Below, piece by piece: positions 14,387 through 40,319 of a DNA stretch of 40,936 bases. A model generated the notes under the pieces. The model was given only the letters and a program-made list of their open reading frames with translations, made no database searches and had not been told where the DNA came from. Positions within the stretch are counted from its first letter, which is position 1, and each line of letters starts with the position of its first letter. The position numbers were made by a program, and so were the translations under genes. Origin of the DNA: a virus (taxonomy: Duplodnaviria; Caudoviricetes); IMG/VR virus record IMGVR_UViG_3300037440_000439, positions 1 to 40,936 of that record; one strand, 5' to 3'.

Positions 14387-14823
14387 TTTTCACCCCCTTT
14401 GCTTTTCACTAATGTCCAACAATTCCTTGGGTCGGTTTCATCGACCCACAATTGCAATTCATAGGTGGGATATTCGGCAATGGCGATGGTGTACCAATCA
14501 CTGATTTTGATGGCTCCGGGTTTATCATCAATCATGGCCATTTCCCGGCTCATTTTCCGCTCACACCAAAAGTCGATTGGGGGCTCAAGGTTGGCAAATT
14601 CGGAAAATTTTGGGTTTTTACCGGCGGAGGGTAGGTTGAAAGTGCGGCCGTCCTTGGTGGTCAAGGCCAATGATGTGATGGCCGCGCCGGTTTCCTGCAA
14701 ATGCTTTTGCAGTTTTTGCCATGGCGACAAATCGCCCTCGATTTCCGTAAAATTTCCTTTGCCTTCAAAAAAGGTGTCGCCCTTGTTGGTTGACACCTGC
14801 CATCGTACCTGATGGGAGTTCAT
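14383..14823 (-). CDS. Hypothetical protein
   Basis: GGAGGT RBS before MNSHQ; stop overlaps the next start. Confidence 0.7.
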   Translation of the reverse strand: MNSHQVRWQVSTNKGDTFFEGKGNFTEIEGDLSPWQKLQKHLQETGAAITSLALTTKDGRTFNLPSAGKNPKFSEFANLEPPIDFWCERKMSREMAMIDDKPGAIKISDWYTIAIAEYPTYELQLWVDETDPRNCWTLVKSKGGEK

Positions 14824-15670: not shown

Positions 15671-15678
15671 TTGGAATC

Positions 15679-15709
15679 ATTATAGCAATTGAATCCGCTA
15701 TGGTGTCAA
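15679..15709 (-). promoter_or_regulatory. Sigma70-like promoter, near-leaderless
   Basis: TTGACA-N19-TATAAT with extended TGn; 8 nt to ATG 15670. Confidence 0.6.
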
Positions 15710-16762
15710 GCAATTGGCCAAAAATTGCCTCAAATTGGCTTCCTCCGCATCAAAATCCACTTTTTCCTTGAATTTGGCATATGCTTTTTGCCTCATTTCC
15801 CGGTATCGATCGGGATCATTGTAGTATGTAACCTTCTCAATAATTTGTTTTGGGGTCAAATCATCGATGTTGATGCAGGTCGCCCCATCAATCATCAAGT
15901 CGCCGGCCATTTTCCGCCGGTAGTAGGACATTTTGACGATTGGCGGGATGCCCATAGCAAATGCGTTGTGGATGATGTGGCCATAGCCGTCGCCGCCGGC
16001 CTTCACATGCCACACAAAACGTGCCCGGCTAATTTTTTCGGCCACTTGCTTCGTCCCATGCAAGGCCCCATCCCGACATGAGCCGCCAAATGATTTGAAA
16101 TCCCAATCGGGCATCAATTTTTCCAAAGTTTTGAACATGGCCCAATCGGATGAAAAATGGGCTTGATGGCCATAGGCATTGATGAAACTGAAAATAGTGT
16201 TGGTTTCCGTGGTGGCTTGTGGCCGGAAAATGTCCAAATCAAATTCCTGGTGGTAGGAAATAAAATTGATCCGATCGGGCACGTTGTCGATATAGGCCGA
16301 AGCCATAATGTTGTCGGCTTCACCGGCCGCAATGGTCCACGCGTTGCCGATTTGGTATATCAATTTAGCCTCCGGTGCATATTCGGCAATCAATTTTTTG
16401 AATGGCTCAATATGGGTGGGGATGGTGGCGATGACAAAATCAAAGCGCATTTTTTGGAAGTAATCGAGGGTGACGGCTCGGTTGAATGCTTCCGAATCAA
16501 TGTCAAAGCATTGATACACGCCGGATGGCTCATAATTGATCACCTCATTGAGTTTGCGGGACCCGTCGGGCGTGTTGCCGCCGATGCCCAAATATTGCTC
16601 AACCGTGGCCGGATGCTCAAATACATGCCAAAAGTTCTTGTTGTACCATTCCCGGCCGATCGGCCGGTACACCATGCCGCCCAAACGCCGCTCGAATAAC
16701 ATGATGAATGATTGAAGCAATGACGCGTGATGGAAATCACAAAATACATTGTATGTTTTCAT
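15698..16762 (-). CDS. Glycosyltransferase, GT-B/GT4-like
   Basis: GDGYGHIIHNAFAMGIPPI...LMIDGATCI C-terminal motif. Confidence 0.75.
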   Translation of the reverse strand: MKTYNVFCDFHHASLLQSFIMLFERRLGGMVYRPIGREWYNKNFWHVFEHPATVEQYLGIGGNTPDGSRKLNEVINYEPSGVYQCFDIDSEAFNRAVTLDYFQKMRFDFVIATIPTHIEPFKKLIAEYAPEAKLIYQIGNAWTIAAGEADNIMASAYIDNVPDRINFISYHQEFDLDIFRPQATTETNTIFSFINAYGHQAHFSSDWAMFKTLEKLMPDWDFKSFGGSCRDGALHGTKQVAEKISRARFVWHVKAGGDGYGHIIHNAFAMGIPPIVKMSYYRRKMAGDLMIDGATCINIDDLTPKQIIEKVTYYNDPDRYREMRQKAYAKFKEKVDFDAEEANLRQFLANCLTP

Positions 16763-16898
16763 ATTATTGCAATAGTATAGGGTACTACTCCCCTATCGCA
16801 TGGGTGTGTCATTTTTTTACTTTTTACCCAAGCGCGTCGGAGTAGGGGAGTGCGGTGGGGTAGGGGAGTGGATTGTTGCATATATTTCAATTATAGGT

Positions 16899-17591
16899 CT
16901 AAGCGTTTCTAAGGGCCTTTTTTGCCGTTTTTCTCCAGGTGGGGTGAATATATACTCCGGAATCAAGGACCTGCCTCAAATAGTCATAAAATTCGTCTTT
17001 GCAATAATTCGGCGGCTCATTTTCGGTGATCAAACGCCAATTGTGGGTCATGCCATTGTAATGTTTGAAGTATTGATCGGGGATATGGGCCGGCTCGATT
17101 TCCAAAAGCTCCAAATCCTTTTGGATTTGGCCGAAATGATCGTATTCGGGCGGCTTGGCGGAAAAGTCTTTGGACGTCAATTCGAGGGTATTGCGTTTGA
17201 TGAATAGGCAAGCCGGATGAAGCCGATCGCCTTGTTTGATGCCGATGACATCGTGATCCTCACCGGCTTTGTATACATGCTCCCAAAAGCCGTCCTTTGG
17301 GTAAAAGTCCTGCTCGGTAAACCATAACCAATCGGCATTGTAGGATTGCACCAAGGCCCGTTTGACGGCCGTATGCCGCCAGTCGATGCCGCCGGTCATA
17401 TACGGATCAATGAAAAGGATGTAATCGGGCGACATGATATTCATGACAAATTGCATATAATTGTCGCCCAATGGTGCCGGCGTCACTGAAATGATCACCC
17501 GATTGAATCGTTGCCGCTCCCGCTTGATCATTTCCCGCCATTGTGGAAAATCACAATTTTCCGGCCACGATACAATCACATCAAAAATCAT
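16899..17591 (-). CDS. Putative glycosyltransferase, GT-A-like
   Basis: ADWLWFTEQDF (ExD after a hydrophobic strand), LHPACLF; start re-called at MIFDVIV behind GAGGTG. Confidence 0.6.
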   Translation of the reverse strand: MIFDVIVSWPENCDFPQWREMIKRERQRFNRVIISVTPAPLGDNYMQFVMNIMSPDYILFIDPYMTGGIDWRHTAVKRALVQSYNADWLWFTEQDFYPKDGFWEHVYKAGEDHDVIGIKQGDRLHPACLFIKRNTLELTSKDFSAKPPEYDHFGQIQKDLELLEIEPAHIPDQYFKHYNGMTHNWRLITENEPPNYCKDEFYDYLRQVLDSGVYIHPTWRKTAKKALRNA

Positions 17592-18624
17592 GCAACACCT
17601 CCTCATATATTTTTTGTCGGCGCCGGATGCGCTTCATGCTTAGTTTGAATTGATTGATTATTTGCATAATCCCCAATTGATAGTAAGTGGCAAATTCATC
17701 CAAGCGGTCCGGCTCCCGACCTTCAAAAAAGGTCAACCACCATTGAACCCGGCGCTCATATTCCCGTTTTTCAAAATCGGTGGTAGGTTTGGGCTCCAAT
17801 TCGGTCGGTCCTTGCGGCTTTTCAAGGTGCATGCGGGCCAAGGGCCGGTTGTGATCATCGCGCAAAAGCCCGGAAATACCTGATGACAATGAGCCAATAT
17901 GGCACCATCCGGCTTTGCCGTCCCAAATGCTCCGCTTTTCCCGATAATGCTCTAAGTCATCCGGGTGGGTATGGTATTGACGCAATTCGGCGATTTTTTT
18001 CTTTGTGATTATAGCCCTTATTTGCAAACTGGCCTCCACAAAGGTGTCGCCGTGTTGATCGGTGTCAAAAGCCATGCCAATAGGCTCCACCACCTCACCG
18101 GCGTGCCAAAATTTGGAGCCGAAATTGTCGATTTGCTTCAAAAGCTTGGTTTCGGAGAAAAAATAGCAAGGCCAAAAATTGGGCCCCCGTTCACCATCAC
18201 CCACATCATTCAAAAGCCATTTGAACACGGCGGCTTTGTACAATTCCAAGCCGCATGATCCCCGGGGCGATCCTACTACCTCAAAACCGTGCTTTTCCAA
18301 CAACCGGAAGCCTGCCCCCACGGCCCCGGTTACAAACACAAAGGCATCATCCTCAATGAGCATGGTGTGGGTTTCCGTCACCTGGGGAAGTATGCGTTTG
18401 ATGGCTTCCCCGTGCTCTAATTGATGGTCGGTATATAGCAAGGTCACCTTGGGATCGTCGGCCACCAAATTTTTTTCATATTCCACCACCTCAGCGGCCA
18501 CCGGCGTGTTGAGGTGGATATATAACCGATCGATTTCATCACGCCAATACCATTTGAAAAGGGTGTACCAATAGTGAAGCAAAAAAGGATCGCCCGGAGT
18601 GGGTAAAATGGCGGCCCGGCTCAT
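17581..18624 (-). CDS. Putative glycosyltransferase, GT-A-like
   Basis: HGEAI...HTMLIEDDAFV (DxD-like), WPCYFF; context. Confidence 0.65.
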   Translation of the reverse strand: MSRAAILPTPGDPFLLHYWYTLFKWYWRDEIDRLYIHLNTPVAAEVVEYEKNLVADDPKVTLLYTDHQLEHGEAIKRILPQVTETHTMLIEDDAFVFVTGAVGAGFRLLEKHGFEVVGSPRGSCGLELYKAAVFKWLLNDVGDGERGPNFWPCYFFSETKLLKQIDNFGSKFWHAGEVVEPIGMAFDTDQHGDTFVEASLQIRAIITKKKIAELRQYHTHPDDLEHYREKRSIWDGKAGWCHIGSLSSGISGLLRDDHNRPLARMHLEKPQGPTELEPKPTTDFEKREYERRVQWWLTFFEGREPDRLDEFATYYQLGIMQIINQFKLSMKRIRRRQKIYEEVLHDF

Positions 18625-18806
18625 GCCCGCCCCCACTCAAATCCGCATGAGCGGCAAACATATTTGTCCGGTGGTTTGCGCTTGAAAAATATGGTGACCA
18701 AAAAAAGCATATACCACATATACCTCCGGGTCATTTGGAAAAAGCTTTCGCCGGCATATTTTTTGACGTTGCGACTTTTGCATCGCGGACACTTAGGCCC
18801 AAACAT
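18621..18806 (-). CDS. Small Zn-ribbon protein with central hydrophobic segment
   Basis: CPRC-S.NV...YMWYMLFLVTIFF...YVCRSCG; GGAGG RBS. Confidence 0.7.
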   Translation of the reverse strand: MFGPKCPRCKSRNVKKYAGESFFQMTRRYMWYMLFLVTIFFKRKPPDKYVCRSCGFEWGRA

Positions 18807-19464
18807 AATCCTCCGGGTGTATTTTGTAAAATCCGGCCAAGCCACGTGGGGTGGGGAAGTGGAAGGGCCGTAATCGGCTATGCTCGATCAATTCCCTGAT
18901 AGCGTGGGGAATTTCACCCCACGGCCAGGCAAAGCCGTGTTCGGTGTTATCAACCTGGCCCATGTGTCGGTGCAAATCATGAATGAAAATATACCCGCCG
19001 GGCTTGATGTAATCACAAAATCGGACCAATTCATTGAAGCGTAATTGCGGCTCGGTATCCAAAAGCGCCATGTCATACCGGGTACCGCGCGGCGGTTGCC
19101 ATTTGGTGGCATCGGCCTGAATGTTGTTAATTAAATGAAAAAGCTTGGCTTTTTGGAAATTTCTGGCGGCGGTGTTGTATAGCTCCGGCAAAAATTCAAG
19201 GGTGTCGATTTGAGTTTCGGCGGCAAAAGCATTGTGCGATACTGCCAAGGCCATATACACGGTGGAAATGCCCTTGTGGGTGCCGGTTTCCAAAATGCGC
19301 TTGGGCTTCAATAGCCGGACCATGGCATACAAAAATTCCCCCACCTCACATTCGACGCCGGCATCATCGAATGCTTGATAACCCAAGGCCCCGGAGCCGG
19401 AGTATTCCGATTCGGAATTGATAGCCAGTCCCAATCGGCGGGCGACTTCATCGGTGATCATCAT
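18793..19464 (-). CDS. Class I SAM-dependent (O-)methyltransferase
   Basis: KPKRILETGTHKGIS, YDMALLD, KPGGYIFIHD. Confidence 0.9.
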   Translation of the reverse strand: MMITDEVARRLGLAINSESEYSGSGALGYQAFDDAGVECEVGEFLYAMVRLLKPKRILETGTHKGISTVYMALAVSHNAFAAETQIDTLEFLPELYNTAARNFQKAKLFHLINNIQADATKWQPPRGTRYDMALLDTEPQLRFNELVRFCDYIKPGGYIFIHDLHRHMGQVDNTEHGFAWPWGEIPHAIRELIEHSRLRPFHFPTPRGLAGFYKIHPEDYVWA

Positions 19465-20452
19465 ACAAAAAATCCTCCCATTGTTTTTTTATATTGTCTT
19501 TGCCAAAAAATTCGATGGCGGTTTGGCGGCCGGTTTCGGAAATTCGGCGGGCCAATTTGATATTGGTTTTCAATTCCTGCATTTTTTGCCGTAAATATCC
19601 CAAATCATCGGAAATGAAGCCATTGTATTCATTTTGAATCAAATCGGGGATTTCGTATAGGTCCTGGGCCAAATTTAAGCTTTCGCCATGCTTGGGACCC
19701 AAGCAAATCATCGGAGCGCCGGTCATCATGGCTTCAATGAAAGTCAGGGTGTATGAGGCCGGTTGGGTGCCGGTGTATATATACCCCCGGCAATCACGAT
19801 ATTTTTGTTTCATAGCTTCATAAGTCAAAAAGCCGCCATTCAAGCTGTTGAGGGCTTCGTTTTTGGGTCCGTATACATGAGCATTGAAATCCTTGACCAA
19901 TTCCAAAAAGGCGTCCACCTGCAAAAACTCACCCCGGTGGTGCATGTCCTGGGCAAAGGTGACAAACTCCGTGCCTCCACCGATCCAATGGTTGTATTCG
20001 TTTGGGTCCTTGTAAAAGCGGATGACCGCATCGGCGCCTATATTGAAGGGGATGTTGATTTCGCGGGGCGAATAGCGGACCACCTGCAAGCCCTGATCCC
20101 GGTAGGGCCTCAGTTTTTGTTCAATTTTCCCCACCGATTGGCCAATGGTGCGCCATATGACCCGCTTGCCCTTGATAATATCCCAATTTTTGCTGATCCA
20201 ATCGGGCCGGTGCATCACCATCACCGTGTCAAACGGCTCGACCAATTCCGGGGTCAATTCATGTTGGGCGGGTAGGGGAGTGTTATATAGTTTTTTGTCG
20301 GGGGCATGTTTGAGCGGCGGCCGGATCGGATCGGCCGGCCGGGTGGGGATGACATAGGACCCCAGGGCAAAATAATCGATGCCCAATTCCTCAAACAATT
20401 TGAGTTCGTCATATTCGAGGGTGGCATGGCATGACAAATACAAAAGTTTCAT
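19448..20452 (-). CDS. Glycosyltransferase, GT-B/GT4-like
   Basis: TLTFIEAMMTGAPMI...LIQNEYNGFI...GRQTA..FF. Confidence 0.85.
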   Translation of the reverse strand: MKLLYLSCHATLEYDELKLFEELGIDYFALGSYVIPTRPADPIRPPLKHAPDKKLYNTPLPAQHELTPELVEPFDTVMVMHRPDWISKNWDIIKGKRVIWRTIGQSVGKIEQKLRPYRDQGLQVVRYSPREINIPFNIGADAVIRFYKDPNEYNHWIGGGTEFVTFAQDMHHRGEFLQVDAFLELVKDFNAHVYGPKNEALNSLNGGFLTYEAMKQKYRDCRGYIYTGTQPASYTLTFIEAMMTGAPMICLGPKHGESLNLAQDLYEIPDLIQNEYNGFISDDLGYLRQKMQELKTNIKLARRISETGRQTAIEFFGKDNIKKQWEDFLYDDHR

Positions 20453-21576
20453 ATATGCGGCTCGAGTTTTTTACTAATTTTTTTTAGTCTTTCCAACATT
20501 TTCCCACCCACAAACTCAAATGAAAATTTCGACTTTACCACTTTTTGACCTTCCAAGCCCATTTCCCGGGCCTGTTTTTGATTTTCAAATACCCACCGCA
20601 TGCCCTTGCGAATGTCATCGACTTTGACATCGGCCCATCGCTGGTCCAGGGTGTACCAAGCATCATTCCGACTATTTTTGACCGGGCAAAGGGAATAGGG
20701 GAGCAAATACGCGGTTTTTTTGTGCTCCAAATACTCATGAATACCGCCGCAATTGGTGGAAATCACCGGGTTGGCCATTAGTAATGCCTCCATTTGGGGA
20801 ATGCCCCACCCTTCGCCCCGGTGCGGCGATACATAGCAATCAAATGTGGCGTGGAAGCGGTACATTTGCCGCCGATCCATCAATTGGGTGAATAAATACA
20901 CCGGCGGATATGCTTTCACATCCACCCGGCGCTTGGCTTTTTTGATGAATGACTTGATTTCATCGAATTTGCTTGGTTGGAAATTGTCCACATAGGTTTT
21001 GATGGTCAAGGACACGCCCTTGGTGCCCTCAAATTCCCGCCAAAATGCCTCCAATAGTGCCATGGGGTTTTTGCGTTCGGTCCATTCAAAAATGGCGTAA
21101 AATTTGAAATCGTTTTGGTTGGGGATCAAATAGGGTTTTGGTTCGGGCGCGTTGGCGTCGATGGCCTCGGTGATGATGTGAATGGGTTTGGTAACGCCGG
21201 CGGCCCGGATGGCATCGGCATTGTATTGGGAGCCGGTCCAAATTTCGTCCAAAATCTCACATTTGCTGGCAAAGGCCAAGGGCAGTTTGTTGGTTTCCCA
21301 AAACACCCGGCCGACATGGTATTTGCCGGCTTCCAAATATTTCTGATAGACATTGGGAGTGACGTGCAAAATTTTGATTTTGTAGCCCAATTGCCGATTT
21401 TCGGCATCCCGTGCAATCGATCCCAATTTGCCAAAATCGGAAAGCTCAATGGTGTATTTGGGAATTTCGGTGGTGAGCACTACACCGGCGGCATGCAGGG
21501 CGCCGACATCATGCCGGCCGGCCTCACCATAGCCTGAATAGTCTGCCAAAGCGCCGGTGTATTTGACCTTCATCAA
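20449..21576 (-). CDS. Glycosyltransferase family 4
   Basis: SGYGEA, WET, RKNP, HRGEGWGIPQMEA...PVIST. Confidence 0.92.
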   Translation of the reverse strand: MMKVKYTGALADYSGYGEAGRHDVGALHAAGVVLTTEIPKYTIELSDFGKLGSIARDAENRQLGYKIKILHVTPNVYQKYLEAGKYHVGRVFWETNKLPLAFASKCEILDEIWTGSQYNADAIRAAGVTKPIHIITEAIDANAPEPKPYLIPNQNDFKFYAIFEWTERKNPMALLEAFWREFEGTKGVSLTIKTYVDNFQPSKFDEIKSFIKKAKRRVDVKAYPPVYLFTQLMDRRQMYRFHATFDCYVSPHRGEGWGIPQMEALLMANPVISTNCGGIHEYLEHKKTAYLLPYSLCPVKNSRNDAWYTLDQRWADVKVDDIRKGMRWVFENQKQAREMGLEGQKVVKSKFSFEFVGGKMLERLKKISKKLEPHI

Positions 21577-21589
21577 CGGTTGCTTTCAC

Positions 21590-21793
21590 TCAAATTTCGA
21601 TATAGTTTCCGGCATCATAGCGGATTTGTGTACCGCAATTTTGACACACCACACTTGAAAATTTTTCCTTTTTGTTGGAATAGAATGCCCGACCGGTGCA
21701 AGCGGGGCAAAAATAGCGGTATTTGGCATTTTTTTCATTCAACGGCTTGTCGGATGCCTCATTTTCGGTTTTTTTCTTGGCCACTGGTATCAC
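21590..21793 (-). CDS. Small zinc-ribbon protein
   Basis: CPAC...CQNCG. Confidence 0.65.
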   Translation of the reverse strand: MIPVAKKKTENEASDKPLNEKNAKYRYFCPACTGRAFYSNKKEKFSSVVCQNCGTQIRYDAGNYIEI

Positions 21794-21796
21794 CCC

Positions 21797-23011
21797 CTAT
21801 GTAATGCGCTTCAAATTTAATATGTTTTGTACCCGCGACTTGACGGGCAATGGTTTGCGGCGGATGTCATCAAAAATACTTTTCAATTGTTTGGCGGTGT
21901 TTTCGTAGGTGTATTTGGTGACGTATCCGGCCGCTTTTTTACCCATCGCGCGGGCTTGCTTTTCGTGTTCATACACGTGGCGCATTTGCTTTTGCAAATG
22001 CTTGGCGTCGCATACCACCATTCTACCAACATCCTGGCCCTTGTATCGCAAGTACAGGCCGGGGCATTCCTTTTCCACTTTGACTTCATACATATATTCC
22101 GGGTTGAAATATTCGGCGATCCCATGGGCATTGGGCACGATTGCCGGCATACCGGTGGCCATGGCCTCCAATGGAGGAATACCAAAACCTTCCCCACGGC
22201 TTGGAAATACAAAGCAATCCGATCGGGCCAATAGGTTTTGCATTTGTTTGGGTGAATATTTGCCGGTGATGACATCGATGTGTGGGTATTGGGTTTTGGT
22301 GATGGGAATGGGCGGCCGATCGAGGATGGTTTTGAATACCATTTTGACCGGCTCATCCGGTTCAAACTCCGACACAAAGGCATTGAAAGCTTCCATGAAT
22401 CCTTTGCGGGCATTGAAGGCGTTATAGTGCAAAAAAGTAAAATCCCGGCGGGTTTCCTTGACCGGTTGACGCTCCACTGGTTTGTAGGTGTCGGCGTCAT
22501 AACCCAAGGGCACCACCGTGGTGTCAAAGCCGGCCCGGGCAAAAGTATCCTGGCAAAATTTTGAAGGCACCAGGATCAAGTCGGCGGCCGCCAAATAGTC
22601 ATGCCATTCGTCGGGTATGCGGGTGGATTCAAACATGGTGTATATAATTCGGAAGGGTGCCTCAATTTGTAGGATGCCATAAGGTGCATGCAACAATACG
22701 GCAATATTTTGATCGTCATAGTAGGTTTTGACATCCTCACCCATTTCCTTCAAATGCCGCATGATGTGGTGGCTTGCTTCCGCGTAGCCGTTGGCCCCGG
22801 TTTGTGACACGGTGGCCATATATACCCCCATGGCCGGATCGCCCTTGGCCTGCTTTTTTTTGGCCAGGCGGTCATAGCGCTCTTGTTCATATTCCTTGAT
22901 TTCGGATTTTTTTGCTTTGCGGAAACCTTTTTGGTCAAGCCAATCGGTAAATTCCTTTTCGGTTTCGACGGCCACAATGCGGCCGAATGGGTTGACCAAG
23001 TAAAAGCTCAT
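21797..23011 (-). CDS. Glycosyltransferase family 4 with N-terminal extension
   Basis: RKG, FVFPSRGEGFGIPPLEAMATGMP. Confidence 0.93.
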   Translation of the reverse strand: MSFYLVNPFGRIVAVETEKEFTDWLDQKGFRKAKKSEIKEYEQERYDRLAKKKQAKGDPAMGVYMATVSQTGANGYAEASHHIMRHLKEMGEDVKTYYDDQNIAVLLHAPYGILQIEAPFRIIYTMFESTRIPDEWHDYLAAADLILVPSKFCQDTFARAGFDTTVVPLGYDADTYKPVERQPVKETRRDFTFLHYNAFNARKGFMEAFNAFVSEFEPDEPVKMVFKTILDRPPIPITKTQYPHIDVITGKYSPKQMQNLLARSDCFVFPSRGEGFGIPPLEAMATGMPAIVPNAHGIAEYFNPEYMYEVKVEKECPGLYLRYKGQDVGRMVVCDAKHLQKQMRHVYEHEKQARAMGKKAAGYVTKYTYENTAKQLKSIFDDIRRKPLPVKSRVQNILNLKRIT

Positions 23012-23017
23012 GCGACT

Positions 23018-23047
23018 AATATACTACATTAGGTGGAAATAGCACAA
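23018..23047 (-). promoter_or_regulatory. Putative leaderless promoter of the glycosyltransferase island
   Basis: TTGTGC-N18-TATATT, 6 nt to ATG, no RBS; contains TGTAGTAT. Confidence 0.5.
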
Positions 23048-24105: not shown

Positions 24106-24822
24106 TTATTTTTGAGGGCCCGGCGTGGTGGTGCCGTACAAATCATCCTCAATGTTGCCGGTTTTCATGGCCTCCAAAATGTCTTGTTCATTTTCCCGGT
24201 AAAATACCGGGTCCTGAATTTGACTGTGTTTGAAGCGCTTGGGTTGGTCGGTTCCGCCCTTGCCTGGGTTTGTAGCACTACCAAGGGTGGTGCTCCCGGG
24301 GTCGCCAAATAGGTATTTGCGCGATTCCTTGAGCTCACCGATTGCTTCATCCACTCCGGCGACGTTGCCGTTGTCATCCAATGACACTTTGGACCGGTCA
24401 ATCAGTTTTACCACTGCATCCTGATCAACCGCGCCTTGCTTTGCGGCCGCTTGCATGATGTTCATGTCAATTACGCTCTGCCGGAATTTTTCCTGGGCTT
24501 CTTCGCGTTCTTTTTCAAGCTTTTCGACCAATTCTTCATATTTTTTTTCTTCCTTGAGCTTTTTTTCCTCAAGTTTTTTTTGTTCGGTTTCGTATTGGTC
24601 GGCCTTTTTGGCGCGTTGTGTCAGTTCTTTGAACCTTGAGTGTTGCCACAAACGCGGATCGTCAAAGACTTTTTGAAAGTCCTCATCCCCAAGTTTGCTG
24701 ACATCAAAGTTGGAATTATCGGTATCCGTTTTTTTCGCGTCCGACGCGTCCGACTTTTCCTTTTTGTTGTTAATATCGCCTGTTTTTGAATCGGAGGCAT
24801 CCGATTTTTTACCTTCTGCCAT
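24106..24822 (-). CDS. Capsid scaffolding protein
   Basis: Charged coiled coil, GAVDQDAVVKLID...KYLF; position before capsid. Confidence 0.85.
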   Translation of the reverse strand: MAEGKKSDASDSKTGDINNKKEKSDASDAKKTDTDNSNFDVSKLGDEDFQKVFDDPRLWQHSRFKELTQRAKKADQYETEQKKLEEKKLKEEKKYEELVEKLEKEREEAQEKFRQSVIDMNIMQAAAKQGAVDQDAVVKLIDRSKVSLDDNGNVAGVDEAIGELKESRKYLFGDPGSTTLGSATNPGKGGTDQPKRFKHSQIQDPVFYRENEQDILEAMKTGNIEDDLYGTTTPGPQK

Positions 24823-24880
24823 ATTTTCCCCTCAGTTGGTGTCGCGGCCTGCCCGCGCCGGGTAAATGTTATATACTGGC

Positions 24881-24910
24881 ATTATATACATTTGTCGGCG
24901 GCATGGTCAA
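24881..24910 (-). promoter_or_regulatory. Promoter for scaffold/capsid
   Basis: TTGACC-N18-TATAAT. Confidence 0.6.
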
Positions 24911-24915
24911 ACCAC

Positions 24916-24957
24916 TTGCAAATAATGTAGGATGATTGTAGTATATAGGTGGAGGTG
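24916..24957 (+). promoter_or_regulatory. Promoter and RBS of the plus-strand gene
   Basis: TTGCAA-N17-TAGTAT, then GGAGGTG 5 nt before ATG 24963. Confidence 0.7.
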
Positions 24958-24962
24958 CACAA

Positions 24963-25196
24963 ATGCCCGATTTGCCACAATACTTTGAAGTCGATTTTGA
25001 TGTTTTCGTCAAGGTTTTCAATACCGGGGTGGATGAAGTCACGGCCATCAATCATTGGGGCAATCCCTACCCCCCGATCAAAGCCATGGTCGAAGGCCGG
25101 CGAGTAGGCCGGGCAACATTTGAAAAGGCCGCCGAAAATCGTCAGGGTTTGCCCACGCCGGTGCGATCCAAGGCCGCGTCCCGGGCTTCCGAATAA
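24963..25196 (+). CDS. 77-aa protein, candidate immunity/antitoxin for the MuF-synthetase fusion
   Basis: Own promoter and strong RBS, globular-looking sequence, convergent overlap with 3' end of 25142..26566. Function is inferred. Confidence 0.7.
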   Translation: MPDLPQYFEVDFDVFVKVFNTGVDEVTAINHWGNPYPPIKAMVEGRRVGRATFEKAAENRQGLPTPVRSKAASRASE

Positions 25197-26566
25197 AGTT
25201 TCAACATTTGTTTTTCCGCTTTGCGCCATTCCGGGCCCTTGACCCGGACCACATCATATAATTTGTCGCCGCCAAGTTCGGTTTTGGCCGTCCACATTTC
25301 CTCATAAGTCACTTGCACCTCACCGATCCTGCCACCGGGCAATTTGATGTTGACCATGTTCATGGCATAGCCGGTTTCCTCATGCAATTTTTCTTTGACC
25401 CGGTGTATTTCATAGTGCTCCGATACCGATTCCACAATAGCGTCAAATTCCTTTTTGTCCCATGGGTTTCTGATAATGACGGCCCCCCGATTGGTGTCCT
25501 TGAGCTCAAAAGTTTCGGCGTTATAGTCATTGATCACTTTGTTGGTGGAGCGCTCCAATTTTTTGGGTGAGCCAATATGATGATCGACGTTGAGTTTTTT
25601 GCTGATTTTCTCAAAATTTTGCTTGAATTTTTCCTGGTGTTTTTTGGCCGGGTCGGTCATATTTTTTTTGACTTGTTCTTTGATCGGACCCCGCATCGAT
25701 TCGCCGGCGGGGTCATATGCTCCCTTCTCCGGATCGTATGCTCGGGTCATTTTGGCTATTTTGGGCACCAATACATTGATGGCATGCCGGCAATTGGGAT
25801 GAAATAAGCCGGCCCGCTCGGCATCAATCACGGTGTCATAACCTCTAGTAGCGCCGGTGGATGACAGGACCTTGCCTTGCCAGGGAAGGCACAAGGGGCA
25901 TGAGCTTTTACCATGATTTGATACCTGCACCAAATCATACCCATTTTCCACCAGTCGATTGGCGATTCCCCGATTGCGGGTTTCCACCACCTTGGTCCGG
26001 AAAAGCATTTCGGAATATCGATCGAGGGTCCATGACCGACCGCCCCGATCCACGATGGCGGCCAATCCATCCTCCATCAATCGGCCCTTCATTTCCCGCT
26101 TAACATTGCGCAAAGCCGCCCCGGAAACCATGCCGGAGGCCATTTTTTGGGTGAGGGCTTCCCGGGAAAAGCGGCCCAACAACAATTGGGCATTCCGGTC
26201 CACGCCCACCAAGCCCTCGGCGAATGCTTTGGCGGTTTCATCCACCAGGGCGGCGATGGCATCCTTGTGGATTTGGTTGAAACCGGTTTCCACCGCCACC
26301 GGTGCCCGGACATTCTTCAATTGCTTGACCGCATCGTCGGCGCCCAATTCGTAATACTCGGGAATTTCCTGTTTGATCCAATCGTTGGTATTTTCACCAA
26401 GCTCGGACAAAATGACCTCAATTTGTTTGAGGATTTTTTTGCGGTTTTGTACACCCCAATCGGTGGCGCCAGCGATTTCGCCCACAATATCCTTGTATGC
26501 GGCTTTATAGGTGCCGATAATTTTTTGGAGGTTTTTTTCGTTGACCTCGACTTCCAAAGGATACAT
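25142..26566 (-). CDS. Minor head (MuF-like/minor capsid) protein fused to C-terminal RelA/SpoT-like synthetase domain
   Basis: N-part: DRGGRSW, DLVQVSNH..CPLC.PWQGKV, GLFHPNCRH. C-part: K..ERS..KV..DY, LKD..R, GY, GEVQV, KLY...R. Confidence 0.85.
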   Translation of the reverse strand: MYPLEVEVNEKNLQKIIGTYKAAYKDIVGEIAGATDWGVQNRKKILKQIEVILSELGENTNDWIKQEIPEYYELGADDAVKQLKNVRAPVAVETGFNQIHKDAIAALVDETAKAFAEGLVGVDRNAQLLLGRFSREALTQKMASGMVSGAALRNVKREMKGRLMEDGLAAIVDRGGRSWTLDRYSEMLFRTKVVETRNRGIANRLVENGYDLVQVSNHGKSSCPLCLPWQGKVLSSTGATRGYDTVIDAERAGLFHPNCRHAINVLVPKIAKMTRAYDPEKGAYDPAGESMRGPIKEQVKKNMTDPAKKHQEKFKQNFEKISKKLNVDHHIGSPKKLERSTNKVINDYNAETFELKDTNRGAVIIRNPWDKKEFDAIVESVSEHYEIHRVKEKLHEETGYAMNMVNIKLPGGRIGEVQVTYEEMWTAKTELGGDKLYDVVRVKGPEWRKAEKQMLKLYSEARDAALDRTGVGKP

Positions 26567-26571
26567 ATTGG

Positions 26572-28095
26572 CTACTCATTTCCCTGATCCTGGTCATCAT
26601 TCTGGCCGGCCGGTTGAAAATTGGGCGTCAATTTCATGCCCTCAAATGCTTTTTTGGATTCGTCATCGGCTTCCTTGAGCATTTCCTTGGCCGATTCTTC
26701 ATCCACTTGGTTGATGGTCATAATGGCGGCCTTTTTGGATTTGAGGCCGGCATCGACCTGCATCACTTCATCGGTGATCATTTCGGTGCCATCGATCGGC
26801 AAGCCGTCGGACCATTCAAGCTCGGGCATCATGGGATCGCCTTGCAATGATTTGCCGTCGATTTTGATGTTGTATTGCTTGGCCAATACTTGGGCCTTGT
26901 ACAATACCCGCTTGATGGCGGTGTCATAATACAATTTTTTCCGGGCGACTTTGGCAATGGTTCGCATCAATTTGAATTTGAGGGCCCGGCCGGAATCGGA
27001 TTGGCCCTCACCCATGCCCAATACATCCGGTGACACTTCCCCGATCATGTAAATAAATTCGACCAATTTTTCAATTTCACTGAAAGCGTTTTCCAAGGAC
27101 GCGTCCCAAGTAATGTATGTCGGTTGGCCGGATTCGCCTTCCTCAATTTCAATCACTCCCAATGACTTTTTCTTGACCCGCCCTTTTTCATCCAATATGC
27201 CCGGCGGCACGGCCAGGATCGGGTCGGAGTGTTTGTCTAAAATGTTGTCAACCTTGCTCATGCGGTTGTTGATGGCAAAAAATAGGGAATCCAAATCATA
27301 GTAATCGGAAATGCCAAAATACAATGAGCCGGTTTTCCAATTGGGGACATGCTCCAATAAGTTGAAATTGACCTCGGTTTTTTCCAGGTTTTTCAAATCA
27401 TCGATGCCAAGCATGCCCAAATCCACTTCCTTGTCGATTTTTTCACCCTTCATCAAAAATAGTTTGTTTTCAATTTGGCCCCGGGTGTGGATTTCCTGCC
27501 GCAAGTAGTAATCCTTGCCAATTTTAATTTTCCAAGCCAAAGTTTCCACCGCCGGCCGCTCCCTGACATTGAAATTTGATACTTCGGGGAAATATATATT
27601 TGGGGTGATGTCCTCAATGATGACCGTCGATTGGTCCTGTTCAAAATCCTTTTTGCCGATCCGCAATTTGAAAATCCCGTCACCTTTGTATGAATTTGAC
27701 AAAGCCGATTCATATAGTTGGGTGTCGAGGTTGTTGGTTTTCCACAAGTTTTCCACAAATTCCTGGTCGCCCTCGGGCATGCGCACCTTCACAGGCTCCG
27801 AAAAAAGCATATCGGCCACAATTTTGGTGATCATGCCGGCGAAATTGACTTTGATATACCGCAAGTCGGCCCACCGGCGATTGAAATGTTCGTCATCGAT
27901 GGCCATGTTGAATGCGCTGAAATGTTGGCCCAAAAAAAGCTTTTCGTAGTATTCATACCCACCGATCCGGGCTTTGGATGCGTCATCGGGCCAGGCCGGT
28001 TTGGTTTTGGCCGTCAAATCAGCATCAACCTTTTCCGCTTCACTTTTTGTGGGTCCATCCATTCTGGGCTCTGTGTCGGAATAGTCATCAACCAT
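26572..28095 (-). CDS. Portal protein, SPP1 gp6-like
   Basis: VNFAGMI, HVPN...GISDY, YITWD, SGRALK; follows TerL. Confidence 0.92.
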   Translation of the reverse strand: MVDDYSDTEPRMDGPTKSEAEKVDADLTAKTKPAWPDDASKARIGGYEYYEKLFLGQHFSAFNMAIDDEHFNRRWADLRYIKVNFAGMITKIVADMLFSEPVKVRMPEGDQEFVENLWKTNNLDTQLYESALSNSYKGDGIFKLRIGKKDFEQDQSTVIIEDITPNIYFPEVSNFNVRERPAVETLAWKIKIGKDYYLRQEIHTRGQIENKLFLMKGEKIDKEVDLGMLGIDDLKNLEKTEVNFNLLEHVPNWKTGSLYFGISDYYDLDSLFFAINNRMSKVDNILDKHSDPILAVPPGILDEKGRVKKKSLGVIEIEEGESGQPTYITWDASLENAFSEIEKLVEFIYMIGEVSPDVLGMGEGQSDSGRALKFKLMRTIAKVARKKLYYDTAIKRVLYKAQVLAKQYNIKIDGKSLQGDPMMPELEWSDGLPIDGTEMITDEVMQVDAGLKSKKAAIMTINQVDEESAKEMLKEADDESKKAFEGMKLTPNFQPAGQNDDQDQGNE

Positions 28096-28101
28096 GTTTC
28101 A

Positions 28102-28110
28102 AGTATAGCA
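28102..28110 (-). promoter_or_regulatory. Extended -10 leaderless promoter of portal
   Basis: TGC-TATACT, 6 nt to ATG, no RBS. Confidence 0.55.
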
Positions 28111-28115
28111 AAAAA

Positions 28116-35040: not shown

Positions 35041-35232
35041 TTAGATGCGATCCGCTTGCCTCAAAATCCAATATATATGAGTGCGATGGTAGTGTTTGCC
35101 GGTTTGCGGGTTGCGGTAGCGCTTGGCGATGATCGGCACCGGGATGCCGGCATTGTAATCCTGAATAACTTGCATCCAAAATTGCTTGATGCGCTTTTCG
35201 CGGATGGTTTCTTTGGGTTTTTCGACTTTCAT
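35041..35232 (-). CDS. Small basic HTH-like DNA-binding protein, candidate regulator
   Basis: YNAGIPVPIIAKRY...HRTHIYWIL; consensus promoter 7 nt upstream. Confidence 0.65.
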   Translation of the reverse strand: MKVEKPKETIREKRIKQFWMQVIQDYNAGIPVPIIAKRYRNPQTGKHYHRTHIYWILRQADRI

Positions 35233-35239
35233 TATTATG

Positions 35240-35268
35240 ATTGTAGTGTATTTGTAGTATGGTGTCAA
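35240..35268 (-). promoter_or_regulatory. Leaderless sigma70 promoter with tandem TGTAGT(A/G)T boxes
   Basis: TTGACA-N17-TACAAT, 7 nt to ATG; boxes at 35242 and 35253. Confidence 0.75.
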
Positions 35269-35678
35269 TCATGCCAAAATACCGATTTGCGTTTGTATGC
35301 CGATCGGCGCCCGGGTGGCCATGGGTTCATGCGGCTTAGGTTGTGCATCCGATCGGCGAATTTGATCACCATAGCTTCGGTGGAGCGCAAATTGGGGAAA
35401 TTGCCTTTTTCATCCTTGGTCAATTCCACTACGTAGCCGGTGATGATGTCGCCGAAGTTTTGGCGCAAATTGACCTCATTGACCTCCGGGCAATCCTCAA
35501 GGATGTCATGCAAATATGCGGCGGCGATAGCGGCGTTGTGTTTGGGCCAAACCTGCATCACCAATTTGGCCACCGCATCACAATGGGCAAAATGTGGCTT
35601 GCCGTCATCATCCACCTGGGCCCGGTGGTAGTACCGGGCCCATTCAATGGCCTTGGCGACGGTTTTTTCGTCGGTCAT
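35265..35678 (-). CDS. HD-domain small alarmone hydrolase-like protein (Mesh1/SpoT HD type)
   Basis: H..Q....G.P...H...VA, AAYLHDILED, FG..I...V..LTK, IKFADRMHN; start re-called at MTDEK. Confidence 0.9.
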   Translation of the reverse strand: MTDEKTVAKAIEWARYYHRAQVDDDGKPHFAHCDAVAKLVMQVWPKHNAAIAAAYLHDILEDCPEVNEVNLRQNFGDIITGYVVELTKDEKGNFPNLRSTEAMVIKFADRMHNLSRMNPWPPGRRSAYKRKSVFWHD

Positions 35679-36031
35679 TGGCTCATACTTTCGTATTCGG
35701 TCCACGTTTCGGTGCGGTCGTGCAATGACAACGGGTATGAGTTGGGAAATCGCGAATCGTGCGAGTGGACGTAATCACCCCCGCTCATCCAACCGGTGTG
35801 GCCATCGGGTGTTTTGGCCACCGGCTCGGCGTGTTTGTAAGTCCGACCCCCGATGGTCCGGGTGACCAGTTTGAGTACCGGCCGTTCGTCTTTGGTGATG
35901 TCGTCCTCGGACCATGGCCCGGTTTCGCATTCCAAATATGCCTCGGTGGCCGGCCGGCATGCGTTCATGTCGTCGGACCCATACCGGCTATGTAATACTT
36001 CGACGGTCAAATACCGTTTTGCATTGGTCAT
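35675..36031 (-). CDS. Hypothetical protein
   Basis: 118 aa, WMSGGDYVHSHDSRF...PLSLHDR; tightly coupled. Confidence 0.75.
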   Translation of the reverse strand: MTNAKRYLTVEVLHSRYGSDDMNACRPATEAYLECETGPWSEDDITKDERPVLKLVTRTIGGRTYKHAEPVAKTPDGHTGWMSGGDYVHSHDSRFPNSYPLSLHDRTETWTEYESMSQ

Positions 36032-36469: not shown

Positions 36470-36498
36470 ATACTACAGTTATACTACACCAAAGTCAA
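36470..36498 (-). promoter_or_regulatory. Early promoter with tandem TGTAGTAT boxes
   Basis: TTGACT-N17-TAGTAT; boxes at 36470 and 36481. Confidence 0.7.
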
Positions 36499-37770: not shown

Positions 37771-38730
37771 CTATTCATTTTTGGCTAGTTTGTCATATAG
37801 CCATTTGAAAAATAACTGAATGTAATTGGGCTCGGGCTCGGTTGGTAGGATCACGGTGCCTTCCTTGACCTTGGATTCCAAGTCGGCTATGAGCCGATTT
37901 TTTTCGCCAATTATGCGGGATTTTTCGTCGATCGTCCCCTGCATATCGACGATTTTATTTTCGTACACTTTTATTACCTCATCCGATTCGGAAAGCTTGG
38001 TGGCCAGGTCAATTCTTAATTTGCGCTCGGCTGACACTTCATCCTTGAGCCTGCCAATTTGCTCCAACCGGTTTTTGACTTCCTCAACCGCCTTGGCAAT
38101 ATTATCGACCCTGAGCAAGTTGAATAGGTCCTTGAGTTGATCGTTTTTGGTCCACAATTTGTCGATCATCACCTCATACCAAATATTCACCGCCGTTTTC
38201 ATCGATTCGCGGTTTGACAAATCGAGGCCCTTGTACATATCGGACATTCCACCACCCATCCTTGCTTCGACCATATTTTTGAAACGCTCCCACCCACGGT
38301 CGAGGGTGCGATGGGGGCAATATTTGCCGGAAAAGTCCTGGTGTTTTTTCACCCGGTCAATTCCCCAATTGTTTTGCTTCAATAAATCGGCGATCAGGTC
38401 GGCCGCGTTGATTTCCGCCCGGTCAAATCGGGGCCCGCCGCTTTTGGAGTAGCAAATTTCGATGCCGATATGCTTGCGGTTGCCGGCTCCGGTGCCACCA
38501 TCCCCCGCATGCCATCCGTTGCGATCCGTTGGCAAGCCCTGCCAAATTTCCACATCATCGACGGCAAAATGAAATGAGGTGGCCAGGCCGTTTGACACCA
38601 TATAGGCGATTTCGTTTTTGGCGGAGGCGTCATTGGCGGTATTGTGGACGCAAATGCCCTCGGGCGTCATTTTGTAAGGTGATTTAAGGGAATATTTGCT
38701 TGAGGGGACCAGGTTTTTTTTGATGGTCAT
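37771..38730 (-). CDS. Endolysin, N-acetylmuramoyl-L-alanine amidase (Amidase_2, CwlA/XlyA-like) with coiled-coil C-terminus
   Basis: ICVHNTANDASA.NE, SFHFAVDD, WHAGDG, IGIEIC, HQDFSGKYCP. Confidence 0.95.
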   Translation of the reverse strand: MTIKKNLVPSSKYSLKSPYKMTPEGICVHNTANDASAKNEIAYMVSNGLATSFHFAVDDVEIWQGLPTDRNGWHAGDGGTGAGNRKHIGIEICYSKSGGPRFDRAEINAADLIADLLKQNNWGIDRVKKHQDFSGKYCPHRTLDRGWERFKNMVEARMGGGMSDMYKGLDLSNRESMKTAVNIWYEVMIDKLWTKNDQLKDLFNLLRVDNIAKAVEEVKNRLEQIGRLKDEVSAERKLRIDLATKLSESDEVIKVYENKIVDMQGTIDEKSRIIGEKNRLIADLESKVKEGTVILPTEPEPNYIQLFFKWLYDKLAKNE

Positions 38731-39110
38731 ATATCAATACTCACCCTTTTTGACTTGGGGCGTTTTTTGATAATGCTTGAGGTGATCATCGCCCCTATTA
38801 TTAGCCCGAACAAATAAAATCCGGTGACAAACATAATCGTAGCATGCGATGCAAAAGCCATTGGCGTAATTTCAACACCGCTGAGTTCTGAAACTCTATT
38901 CAGAGAAGTCAAAGCAATGGCGGTAGCGTAAAAGCCAATTGCCACAGTGGCCCGATATACCTGATTCAAATGGTCCCGGTAGAATGTGGCCCCAATAAAT
39001 AATCCCGAAATAGTGGTATAGGCCATCGATTGCCAAAAATAATTGGCACCATAAACGTAAATGATGGCCGGCCACAAAAATGCCAATAAAAGTTGCATAT
39101 TAGTTGTCAA
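38727..39110 (-). CDS. Multi-pass membrane protein (repeat copy of 343..726)
   Basis: Identical translation. Confidence 0.6.
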   Translation of the reverse strand: MTTNMQLLLAFLWPAIIYVYGANYFWQSMAYTTISGLFIGATFYRDHLNQVYRATVAIGFYATAIALTSLNRVSELSGVEITPMAFASHATIMFVTGFYLFGLIIGAMITSSIIKKRPKSKRVSIDI

Positions 39111-39291
39111 CGTGTCGATTGATTTTGTAATTGAGCTCGTTGACCTTTTCGGTTAATTTGTCCAATAGTACATTCCGGCGCTTGACTTCATCAGTCAAAT
39201 TTTCCAATTTTTTTTGAAATGAGAAAAGCAAAAACGCGGCAACCGCCACCGGAAATCCAAAGTTGGCCAAAATATTGGTGAAATCCTGCAT
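39100..39291 (-). CDS. YvrJ-like/holin-like protein (repeat copy)
   Basis: Identical translation to 716..907. Confidence 0.7.
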   Translation of the reverse strand: MQDFTNILANFGFPVAVAAFLLFSFQKKLENLTDEVKRRNVLLDKLTEKVNELNYKINRHVDN

Positions 39292-39307
39292 TAGTATTTA
39301 TCATAAC

Positions 39308-39829
39308 CTAAGTTGATAATAGATGCATTTCAAATCGGCTCTGTCTTGTATTTCCTGAAAGTACGCTATCATCATCGCTTGCAATGGCCCTCACCGAAAC
39401 GGTGTCGGTGGCTGATAAGTTGATCAAACAATTGCACGTCAAGTTTATTTGTCCCACTCCGCTTGATCGACCAAATGATCGGGCGGTGATGGTTGAATTT
39501 TTATATACTCTGGTTTCGATAGCTTCTTGATCGGACGATATCCCAAAATCAAGTGATGCCAACACAATATAGAATCCGTCATAGGGGGCCGTGAATATAC
39601 CGGTGGATTGATTGTAATTTGATCCGGTGTCAAATAACTCGGTTTCAAAAACAATATCGCTTGATGCTACATTGGCGGTTAAGTTAAGGTCATTTCCGGT
39701 GTCCATCCAAGCCGAAAACTTGGCGCTCAATCCTTGTTGGGTATTAATAACATCGGTGCGCAAATCATTATATTCGCTGGCAAAAATATCGTTTCCAGGC
39801 GATACGGTTGATGATGTCATTTCGCTCAT
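39308..39829 (-). CDS. C1q-like tail-tip protein (repeat copy)
   Basis: Identical translation to 924..1445. Confidence 0.7.
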   Translation of the reverse strand: MSEMTSSTVSPGNDIFASEYNDLRTDVINTQQGLSAKFSAWMDTGNDLNLTANVASSDIVFETELFDTGSNYNQSTGIFTAPYDGFYIVLASLDFGISSDQEAIETRVYKNSTITARSFGRSSGVGQINLTCNCLINLSATDTVSVRAIASDDDSVLSGNTRQSRFEMHLLST

Positions 39830-39841
39830 AATAGCCTCATT

Positions 39842-40318
39842 TTACCCGATTGTTACGGTCCACACCAAACTCAAGGTATCATTTGACGTTTTGGTGCGAC
39901 TGATGGCGGTCCGGCAAAAAAGGGTGCCGGAATCGGCGGTGTCGGTGGCGGCATCACCAAAAAGACCGGCTTCCGCCAAAGCACCGTTGCCCTCACTGGT
40001 GGTGAAAAAGGTTTCAAAGGTGGCCACATTGCCCGAAACCGACCGGACGCTGACCAATTTGCGCTCAATTTCGGTTTCCAAATCGGTGTCCGATAATGCC
40101 GGGGCCGTTGAGCCGGTGCCCAGGGCACAATAGGTGATGATGCCTTTGTTGTTGGTGATAGTGCCGCGCAAGGCATCGGCGATTGAATTTTTGCCGGCGG
40201 TGACCACCATGTTGACATAATCATCCACCGACTTGATCCGACCGGTTTTGGCGTCACGCAAAATCAACCTGACCGCGCCGGTTGGCTTGATGTATTCCGG
40301 TATATATATTTTGCTCAT
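39842..40318 (-). CDS. Tail/baseplate protein (repeat copy)
   Basis: Identical to 1458..1934. Confidence 0.65.
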   Translation of the reverse strand: MSKIYIPEYIKPTGAVRLILRDAKTGRIKSVDDYVNMVVTAGKNSIADALRGTITNNKGIITYCALGTGSTAPALSDTDLETEIERKLVSVRSVSGNVATFETFFTTSEGNGALAEAGLFGDAATDTADSGTLFCRTAISRTKTSNDTLSLVWTVTIG

Positions 40319-40319
40319 A

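Follow-up and report, generated by a model that had tools for sequence, protein, structure and literature searches.

The locus described here raises the question of why a tailed phage whose genes are nearly all carried by the minus strand should possess a small plus-strand gene facing the end of a head-protein gene, and what the product of that small gene does. The window, that is, the whole stretch of DNA analysed (40,936 nt), represents a near-complete tailed phage (completeness 99%) with a unit genome of approximately 38,384 bp, because its start recurs at position 38,385. Its minus strand specifies a terminase, an SPP1-like portal, a MuF2 fusion, scaffold and capsid proteins, glycosyltransferases, tail and lysis functions, and an early region encoding RecT, RusA and an HD protein. 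The terminal portion (38385-40936) repeats the start with an equal ORF pattern and is not letter-identical to it over all 2552 bases, which may reflect strain variation or an overlap created during assembly. Between the capsid and tail genes (15698-23011), genes for glycosyltransferases and methyltransferases form a run with unassigned genes; this run, kept in the complete relative G001, possibly functions in virion or host-surface glycosylation. The features of the locus are as follows.

24106..24822, minus strand: scaffold protein, divergent from the 77-aa gene
24881..24910, minus strand: predicted scaffold/capsid promoter TTGACC-18-TATAAT, facing the scaffold gene
24916..24944, plus strand: predicted promoter TTGCAA-17-TAGTAT of the 77-aa gene (-35 at 24916-24921, -10 at 24939-24944)
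24951..24957, plus strand: Shine-Dalgarno sequence GGAGGTG, with purine-rich equivalents upstream of the gene in relatives
24963..25196, plus strand: 77-aa gene with an ATG start, encoding a likely Tis1/IapK-like immunity protein
25142..26566, minus strand: MuF2 minor head protein with a C-terminal synthetase domain, 474 aa (PF06152, residues 41-271)
25142..25660, minus strand: Tas1/Apk-like synthetase domain, residues 303-474 (profile match and invariant residues)
26572..28095, minus strand: SPP1-like portal, 5 bp upstream of MuF

An earlier, sequence-only reading had taken the plus-strand ORF for an immunity gene, inverted for independent and early expression. The ORF, promoter hexamers, Shine-Dalgarno sequence, divergent scaffold promoter and 55-bp overlap with the MuF gene were all located where that reading had placed them. 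Its statement that this is the only plus-strand ORF with a clear promoter and ribosome-binding site (RBS) was nearly right: two plus-strand ORFs of the window pass a promoter-plus-RBS filter, the second being a 56-aa GTG frame at 14642-14812 inside a minus-strand gene, and the promoter agrees with the sigma-70 consensus at 8 of 12 positions and is absent from the consensus-scan list. As 30 shuffles returned a mean of 0.33 ORFs, with at least one in 7/30, the promoter-plus-RBS feature alone does not exceed chance, and the single-genome observation (8/12, and two filtered ORFs against 0.33) is no more than suggestive.

The 77-codon ORF at 24963-25196 is a real gene. Across six loci (15 pairs), it is under purifying selection (pN of 0.13-0.47 vs pS of 0.44-1.00), and over 54 codons the differences at the three codon positions number 266/270/520, third positions thus differing twice as often as first or second positions. 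Its frame is, furthermore, the only one open throughout all six loci. These data bear on a most improbable alternative, according to which the small protein has nothing to do with the toxin (a hitch-hiker or shadow ORF) and immunity is provided by a hydrolase alone or by a 115-aa frame at 24882-25229. Selection in the plus frame led us to reject a shadow ORF, and the co-directional 115-aa frame was rejected as an immunity gene since every MuF-strand frame is interrupted in at least one of the six loci and it has no Pfam or PHROG match, being a codon-register shadow of the plus ORF. The coding overlap with MuF measures 55, 37, 12, 12, 12 and 6 bp in the six loci and 4 bp in a seventh, L109; the 55-bp overlap is itself not conserved across relatives and, given this 4- to 55-bp range, was rejected as a conserved antisense element. 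The accompanying suggestion that the gene could exert antisense control met with no positive evidence, the overlap being 4-12 bp in 5/7 loci, and appears unlikely.

The MuF fusion matches PF06152 with an E value of 1e-25, and its synthetase domain (residues 303-474) matches Tas1 (6ox6_A) with E values of 0.15 as a single sequence and 3.7e-7 as a three-sequence profile; at an E value of 1 or below, the profile matched no RSH other than Tas1. The Pfam RelA_SpoT family was matched in 2/5 relatives, at an E value of just 0.037. Residues K335, R339, K343, D357, R360, Y400, E416 and Q418 are invariant in 16 sequences, and D357, R360, Y400, E416 and Q418 among them are of catalytic type. Apk enzymes are described, in the accessible portion of PMC12226406, as having D-x-x-R (not AVR) in syn2, GxN in syn3 and a syn4 devoid of IR. 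Both syn2, where KDTNRGA of the window aligns with Tas1 KDLARNT, and syn4, where EVQVT aligns with EIQVN, are Apk-like. The syn3 GxN is absent, Tas1 GVN being aligned to MNM in the window and to MAM, NNM or HNM in relatives, although an Asn two residues on is invariant; the SxH of ppGpp enzymes is likewise missing. Judged by these motifs, the domain is classed as Apk-like with a syn3 that departs from the Apk2 signature, and (p)ppApp is its likely product, a prediction made less than certain by that departure. The same domain is also present in two very large proteins without MuF2 annotation, P0101 (1579 aa) and P0103 (1985 aa).

The locus displays three features of a MuF polymorphic toxin, namely an N-terminal MuF domain after the portal, variable C-terminal domains and a small ORF at the toxin end, the last of these occurring in 7/7 loci but on the opposite strand. 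The C termini of relatives' MuF proteins range from none to ART-PolyVal-like, HExxH peptidase-like and papain-fold domains, one example per kind having been scanned for domains. ART-PolyVal-like C termini (L032, L043, L068, L070 and L083) have no small ORF before the scaffold gene; downstream of HExxH peptidase-like C termini (L035, L040, L045, L072, L091, L092 and L095) are small acidic ORFs that carry a DPELG-like motif; L087 and L089 bear a domain containing NHP and L097 a papain-fold domain. In L059, an intein (PF14890; 4281-5159) lies inside the MuF gene.

Linkage among homologues, a check that the sequence-only reading had itself proposed, ties the inverted gene to the synthetase domain. 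A MuF-seeded scan of 45/64 parts of the collection gave 583 confirmed stretches, of which the best 80 were kept. A Tas1-like domain occurred in six of these 80 MuF loci, one of which (L018) is the window's own twin, and the small gene was present and inverted in 6/6; it occurred in 0/74 of the other MuF loci among the best 80 of 583. Sixty-four of those 74 domainless loci, with 60 distinct MuFs, continue for 400 nt or more after the MuF stop (0/64). Together with L109, which was recovered in a later toxin-seeded scan and again carries the gene inverted, the small gene accompanies the toxin domain, always inverted, in 7/7 loci vs 0/64, a distribution that argues against a small protein unrelated to the toxin. 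ORF-seeded viral scans gave toxin loci exclusively (5/5 and 4/4), and the gene was missing from 22/22 whole toxinless records, a search for which there was a positive control. A stricter DNA pattern returned the window's twin as its sole locus, while a 41,598-bp contig from the metagenome scan proved to be the same as L002 and was counted once. An L012 match in the genome collection spanned 13 residues and was dropped as a chance match. Members of the small-protein family adjoin an Apk-like domain in all loci whose DNA context was examined, and for three of 30 members looked up, the longest assembled piece equals that of MuF-toxin proteins in size (38679, 39853 and 9420).

Toxinless short MuFs proved to be close sisters of toxin-bearing MuFs at three starred forks (98, 99 and 95) of a quick tree, which comprised 53 MuF domains from L018-L076 and excluded short or duplicate rows. 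Given such sisters and the complete linkage, the synthetase domain and the small gene are gained or lost together; the seven toxin loci are not seven independent events, as the quick tree is compatible with a single origin. The MuF-scaffold gap is 70-115 bp in 46/52 toxinless loci, these 52 having been chosen by hand out of the 74 because their scaffold start could be located, vs 319-366 bp in six toxin loci.

A three-sequence profile of the ORF matched 83 proteins at an E value of 0.001 or below among 1.84 billion representatives; 64 of these (59-103 aa) were kept as the family of small homologues, the 19 dropped being 11 long repetitive proteins, seven fusions or duplications and one fragment. 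Alignment A7 combines the 64 with three locus ORFs (67 members), and the AlphaFold2 model based on it has a mean pLDDT of 83, with approximately 87-95 over residues 1-60 and 52-55 in a tail that is the portion overlapping MuF. The predicted folded core (approximately residues 4-60) consists of a three-stranded sheet, helix, strand and helix. Pfam Tis1_ImmP (PF24154) was matched by 4/67 family members at 16.5-21.3 bits (best E value, 3e-4), all below its 27-bit cut-off, while none of the seven toxin-linked ORFs searched singly, the window's included, matched it. In both VIA fold searches, 6ox6_B (Tis1) ranked first of 48,161 chains (Z of 3.9, rmsd of 3.9-4.0, 57 residues aligned), a Z score tied with unrelated chains. 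Foldseek ranked it first with the shallow model (E value, 0.56) and fourth with the better, deep model (E value, 1.5), so that Tis1 was the top match in 3/4 fold searches with non-significant scores. Identity to Tis1 is approximately 18% over the aligned part. Searches of PDB sequences in which the ORF, the L109 ORF and three profiles served as queries yielded chance matches and never Tis1; a word-index homologue search returned the ORF and no other sequence, and neither the toxin domain nor the ORF was matched among GenBank phages. A complex prediction with toxin domain residues 301-474 and small-protein residues 1-64 (score of 0.01, mark of 0.32) counts neither way.

The ORF family therefore weakly resembles, in its profile matches and predicted model, the inhibitor of the very toxin matched by the neighbouring domain, and it is because the searches name the partner of that matched chain that the likeness carries weight, although scores below significance leave some room for a small protein unrelated to the toxin. 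Several family members (P0033, P0050, P0056, P0051, P0034 and P0058) are tandem duplications and fusions, and one is fused to a Zeta-toxin domain; with members duplicated or joined to other domains, the family is not confined to an immunity role. Some members derive from bacterial assemblies (Microgenomates and Anaerolineae records). We consider it likely, on the strength of the linkage and of a Tis1 resemblance that is weak but specific, that the 77-aa gene encodes a Tis1/IapK-type immunity protein against the MuF toxin domain, as the sequence-only reading had proposed. That reading is here extended by the family identity (Tas1/Apk2 with Tis1/IapK), a remote hydrolase and the presence of the scaffold promoter in toxinless relatives.

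The closest described counterpart is the Apk2-IapK(BcTis1)-Aph1 system which, in the accessible text of PMC10083569 and PMC12226406, likewise has a MuF protein fused to a Tas1-like synthetase and adjoining the portal, a small Tis1-like gene alongside and an HD hydrolase in the same genome, and is assigned to temperate phages, with examples in Bacteroides caccae, Streptococcus pneumoniae, Mannheimia and Pasteurella prophages. There, iapK and aph1 come after the toxin gene within a single cluster of three genes (PMC10083569 and PMC12226406, as accessible), whereas in the present phage the small gene occupies the other strand and has its own predicted promoter, the hydrolase lies 10 kb off in the early region, the syn3 GxN is lacking and no integrase was detected. 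Tas1-Tis1 (Apk1) of Pseudomonas aeruginosa PA14 (PDB 6OX6) provides the best sequence match of the toxin domain and a weak fold match of the small protein that ranks first or close to first; that system relies on PAAR/type VI delivery in place of MuF, and the small protein described here is shorter than Tis1, with a core of approximately 57 residues. FaRel, a (pp)pApp-type toxSAS, is similarly paired with both kinds of antitoxin, AT2faRel (with a Tis1-like domain) and ATfaRel (a hydrolase), but in a chromosomal three-gene operon without MuF (PMC11782079, available portion). The verdict is that the locus is a rearranged form of the known Apk2-IapK-Aph1 module in phages without detectable integrase, with strict inversion, a displaced hydrolase and the missing integrase as the layout features that are new relative to that module. 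In the non-subscription literature searched, no inverted iapK or tis1 gene was found, though such cases could be present in the tables of neighbouring genes belonging to PMC5576092 and PMC10083569. The locus adds a divergent Tis1-like family below Pfam's cut-off, and it indicates that searches restricted to the co-directional downstream ORF overlook real immunity genes.

The hydrolase and the elements that bear on the timing of expression are listed below.

24926-24944, plus strand: 11-bp-period repeat TGTAGGAT-GAT-TGTAGTAT, in the 3' part of the 77-aa gene promoter
35041..35268, minus strand: 63-aa possible helix-turn-helix protein (ATG at 35232), candidate regulator
35265..35705, minus strand: stand-alone HD-domain small alarmone hydrolase of the RSH type in the early region, candidate second (enzymatic) immunity
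36470..36498, minus strand: predicted early promoter TTGACT-17-TAGTAT with the same 11-bp repeat, heading the gene run that includes the hydrolase

The hydrolase gene, approximately 10 kb from the toxin locus, is present in 2/2 complete toxin genomes, syntenic in G001, vs 0/22 toxinless records (0/16 among those at least 90% complete), a presence/absence pattern that amounts to one contrast since the two complete toxin genomes are sisters. It was not found in three toxin-bearing fragments, which are just 27-35% complete and so carry little weight. The signature of Aph1 is reported, in the accessible part of PMC10083569, as D24, R96, D116, R119, K133 and Y134. The window's protein has an Asp where TtRel has the guanine-stacking R43, as does Aph1 with D24, and the C-terminal Tyr is present; D116, R119 and K133 were not evident by eye, and the (p)ppApp hydrolase structure 7smg gave an E value of 0.2, below Rel hydrolase domains. 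The existence of a hydrolase in the genome is nonetheless what an account based on hydrolysis alone, with a small protein unrelated to the toxin, would draw upon.

Upstream of the small gene in six loci are a TTG-type -35 element, a 17- to 18-nt spacer and a TAnnAT -10 element, with TGT, G-TA and AT as invariant columns. Since the window's promoter matches the consensus at 8/12 positions, support for it lies in conservation rather than score (antisense promoters score 8-11 of 12, overlapping background), and such conservation in relatives is likewise what favours the earlier proposal of independent expression from a dedicated promoter. By eye, the -35 boxes of the divergent promoters are separated by 5 bp in the window and by 5, 8, 5, 8 and 12 bp in the other loci; in L109, the promoter pair (9 bp apart) is situated approximately 290 nt upstream of the gene and is separated from it by a 41-aa hydrophobic ORF. 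RNA polymerase occupies the region from roughly -55 to +20, and polymerases on two such back-to-back promoters would presumably clash. Extended -10 elements contain TGn; an extended -10-like element, TGCTATACT, just precedes the portal start and is likely the head of the toxin's transcript. Elsewhere, -10-like hexamers 6-10 nt before a start codon with no RBS (28096-28115, 23012-23031, 15671-15690 and 35233-35245) suggest leaderless transcripts for several window genes.

The repeat consensus TGTARNAT-N3-TGTARNAT occurs with at most one mismatch in 5/6 toxin loci and 1/52 others, a count that is circular because the motif was derived from those same loci; it was not found in the 100 nt before the L109 ORF, and at that stringency is missing in 2/7 loci. 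Independent of the motif-deriving loci are two further sites with at most one mismatch in the window (0.05 expected from 20 shuffles), at 36488 in the early promoter and at 35242, where the TTGACA-17-TACAAT element of the 63-aa protein gene holds the repeat inverted. Weaker sites lie at 23028 and 30077, and G001 has sites at matching places (32474, 20966, 22632-22643, 34351 and 27276), including those before the first glycosyltransferase gene and the small terminase gene. Five promoter regions that correspond between the two complete genomes thus contain an 11-bp-period direct repeat, in one orientation or the other. It may be an operator or merely tandem -10-like elements, and it is a candidate operator of the 63-aa protein, whose orthologue matched HTH_7 with an E value of 0.1 and whose window copy matched nothing. 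Whichever nature the repeat has, the promoter of the 77-aa gene looks like the early promoter, and in view of this common repeat it is plausible, as had been suggested, that the gene is expressed before the late operon.

It is proposed that the MuF fusion would be synthesised alongside the portal and, as SPP1 gp7 suggests by analogy, packed into heads in few copies, where its C-terminal domain, given its likeness to Tas1, would convert ATP into (p)ppApp. The 77-aa protein would bind and block this predicted (p)ppApp-synthetase domain, its gene being transcribed from its own predicted promoter and not from the toxin's transcript. Were the gene co-directional and placed last in the portal-MuF unit, it would switch on only along with the toxin, whereas an inverted gene with an early-like promoter could supply inhibitor soon after DNA entry, thereby neutralising both virion-delivered and late-made enzyme, with the early-region hydrolase clearing any (p)ppApp that escapes. 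The simplest account is that the inhibitor would be in place before portal and MuF are made. Antidotes that are inverted, separately promoted and, in the case of the hydrolase, placed among early genes suggest that protection is needed early, which favours virion delivery. The explanation as a whole, a tail-to-tail immunity gene with its own promoter that blocks a predicted (p)ppApp synthetase, is considered probable, while early timing as the reason for the inversion stands at about even chances.

An account of the inversion that dispenses with any timing purpose, and that is possible though the less expected, holds that the gene, as a self-contained, moron-like cassette, was acquired or inverted in a single event at a site permissive for antisense insertions, and is constitutively expressed. 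The MuF-domain tree is compatible with this, as are other small hydrophobic antisense ORFs in the same slot, one in L063 (4411-4602, minus strand, in the MuF-scaffold slot of a short MuF) and one in L109 (between 2461 and 2899, upstream of the immunity-like gene). So, too, is the finding that the other MuF C termini listed for the clade keep co-directional small ORFs or none; the inversion is accordingly a property of this module, and the idea that it is a rule followed by every MuF toxin of the clade was rejected on the same grounds. Orientation is, however, constant in 7/7 loci despite saturated synonymous sites, and the promoter repeat is common to the early promoter in both complete genomes.

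The geometry of the locus could also constitute a transcriptional switch, in which convergent read-through or polymerase collision, together with the adjacent -35 boxes, renders immunity and toxin/head expression mutually exclusive. It would resemble the tha-1/ith-1 noncontiguous operon of Staphylococcus aureus phage 80alpha, in which, according to the accessible text of PMC11087260, the protein inhibitor of a toxin is similarly encoded on the opposite strand with its own promoter. Across six loci, neither stop was followed by a terminator-like hairpin at a position common to the loci, so that overlapping RNAs from the convergent genes are possible, and the back-to-back -35 boxes 5-12 bp apart and the 80alpha precedent (PMC11087260, as accessible) point the same way. 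Against it, the coding overlap varies from 4 to 55 bp, and most inhibition in 80alpha is attributed to the protein (PMC11087260, accessible portion). A good scaffold-facing promoter (at least 10 of 12) is, moreover, present in 24/52 toxinless loci; as the scaffold gene has its own promoter in toxinless relatives too, the small gene interrupts no single obligatory operon. In tha-1/ith-1, the inhibitor is encoded within the lysogenic cI operon and has a HEPN defence RNase as its target (PMC11087260, as accessible), whereas here a convergent pair with a virion-type fusion toxin lies in the head module, with no shared sequence. Such a switch is judged rather unlikely, and could in any case hold on top of protein immunity.

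The phage lifestyle bears on a further alternative, namely that the locus is an anti-phage toxin-antitoxin module whose small protein is a labile or phage-sensing antitoxin and whose MuF fusion kills carriers on superinfection. Related toxSAS modules act in phage defence (PMC11782079, available portion), and the family members in bacterial assemblies would agree with this. The toxin is, however, fused to a head protein encoded between portal and scaffold, and neither PF00589 (tyrosine integrase) nor PF07508 (serine recombinase) was found in 2/2 complete toxin genomes (the window and G001), so that a stable carrier state is not evident; we regard this alternative as very unlikely. An integrase is present in 2/16 near-complete relatives, and the absence of the two families alone does not settle the phage lifestyle. 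How MuF toxins serve the phage during its cycle is described as unknown in the accessible parts of PMC10083569 and PMC12254948, and MuF toxins are reported absent from virulent phages (PMC5576092, as accessible), whereas a MuF-synthetase is found here in two complete phage genomes without detectable integrase.

A bolder and decidedly tentative extension is that non-integrating phages have split the Apk2-IapK-Aph1 operon, placing the antidotes in an early regulon marked by the 11-bp repeat and the toxin in the virion, with a promoter switch between them. Were this so, the first phage to enter a cell would be immune within minutes, and the injected enzyme would be a phage-against-phage or host-stunning weapon. 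The back-to-back -35 boxes would shift expression away from immunity and towards the head genes, leaving new virions to package toxin free of its inhibitor, and the contribution of MuF toxins to the phage cycle could then be tested in a lytic setting.

The scaffold leader contains a small GC-rich hairpin (24823-24870, minus strand, in the window and in L019-L023), and CCGCGA(C/T)A stands just before the scaffold RBS in four of six loci; the hairpin possibly contributes to translational control of the scaffold gene.
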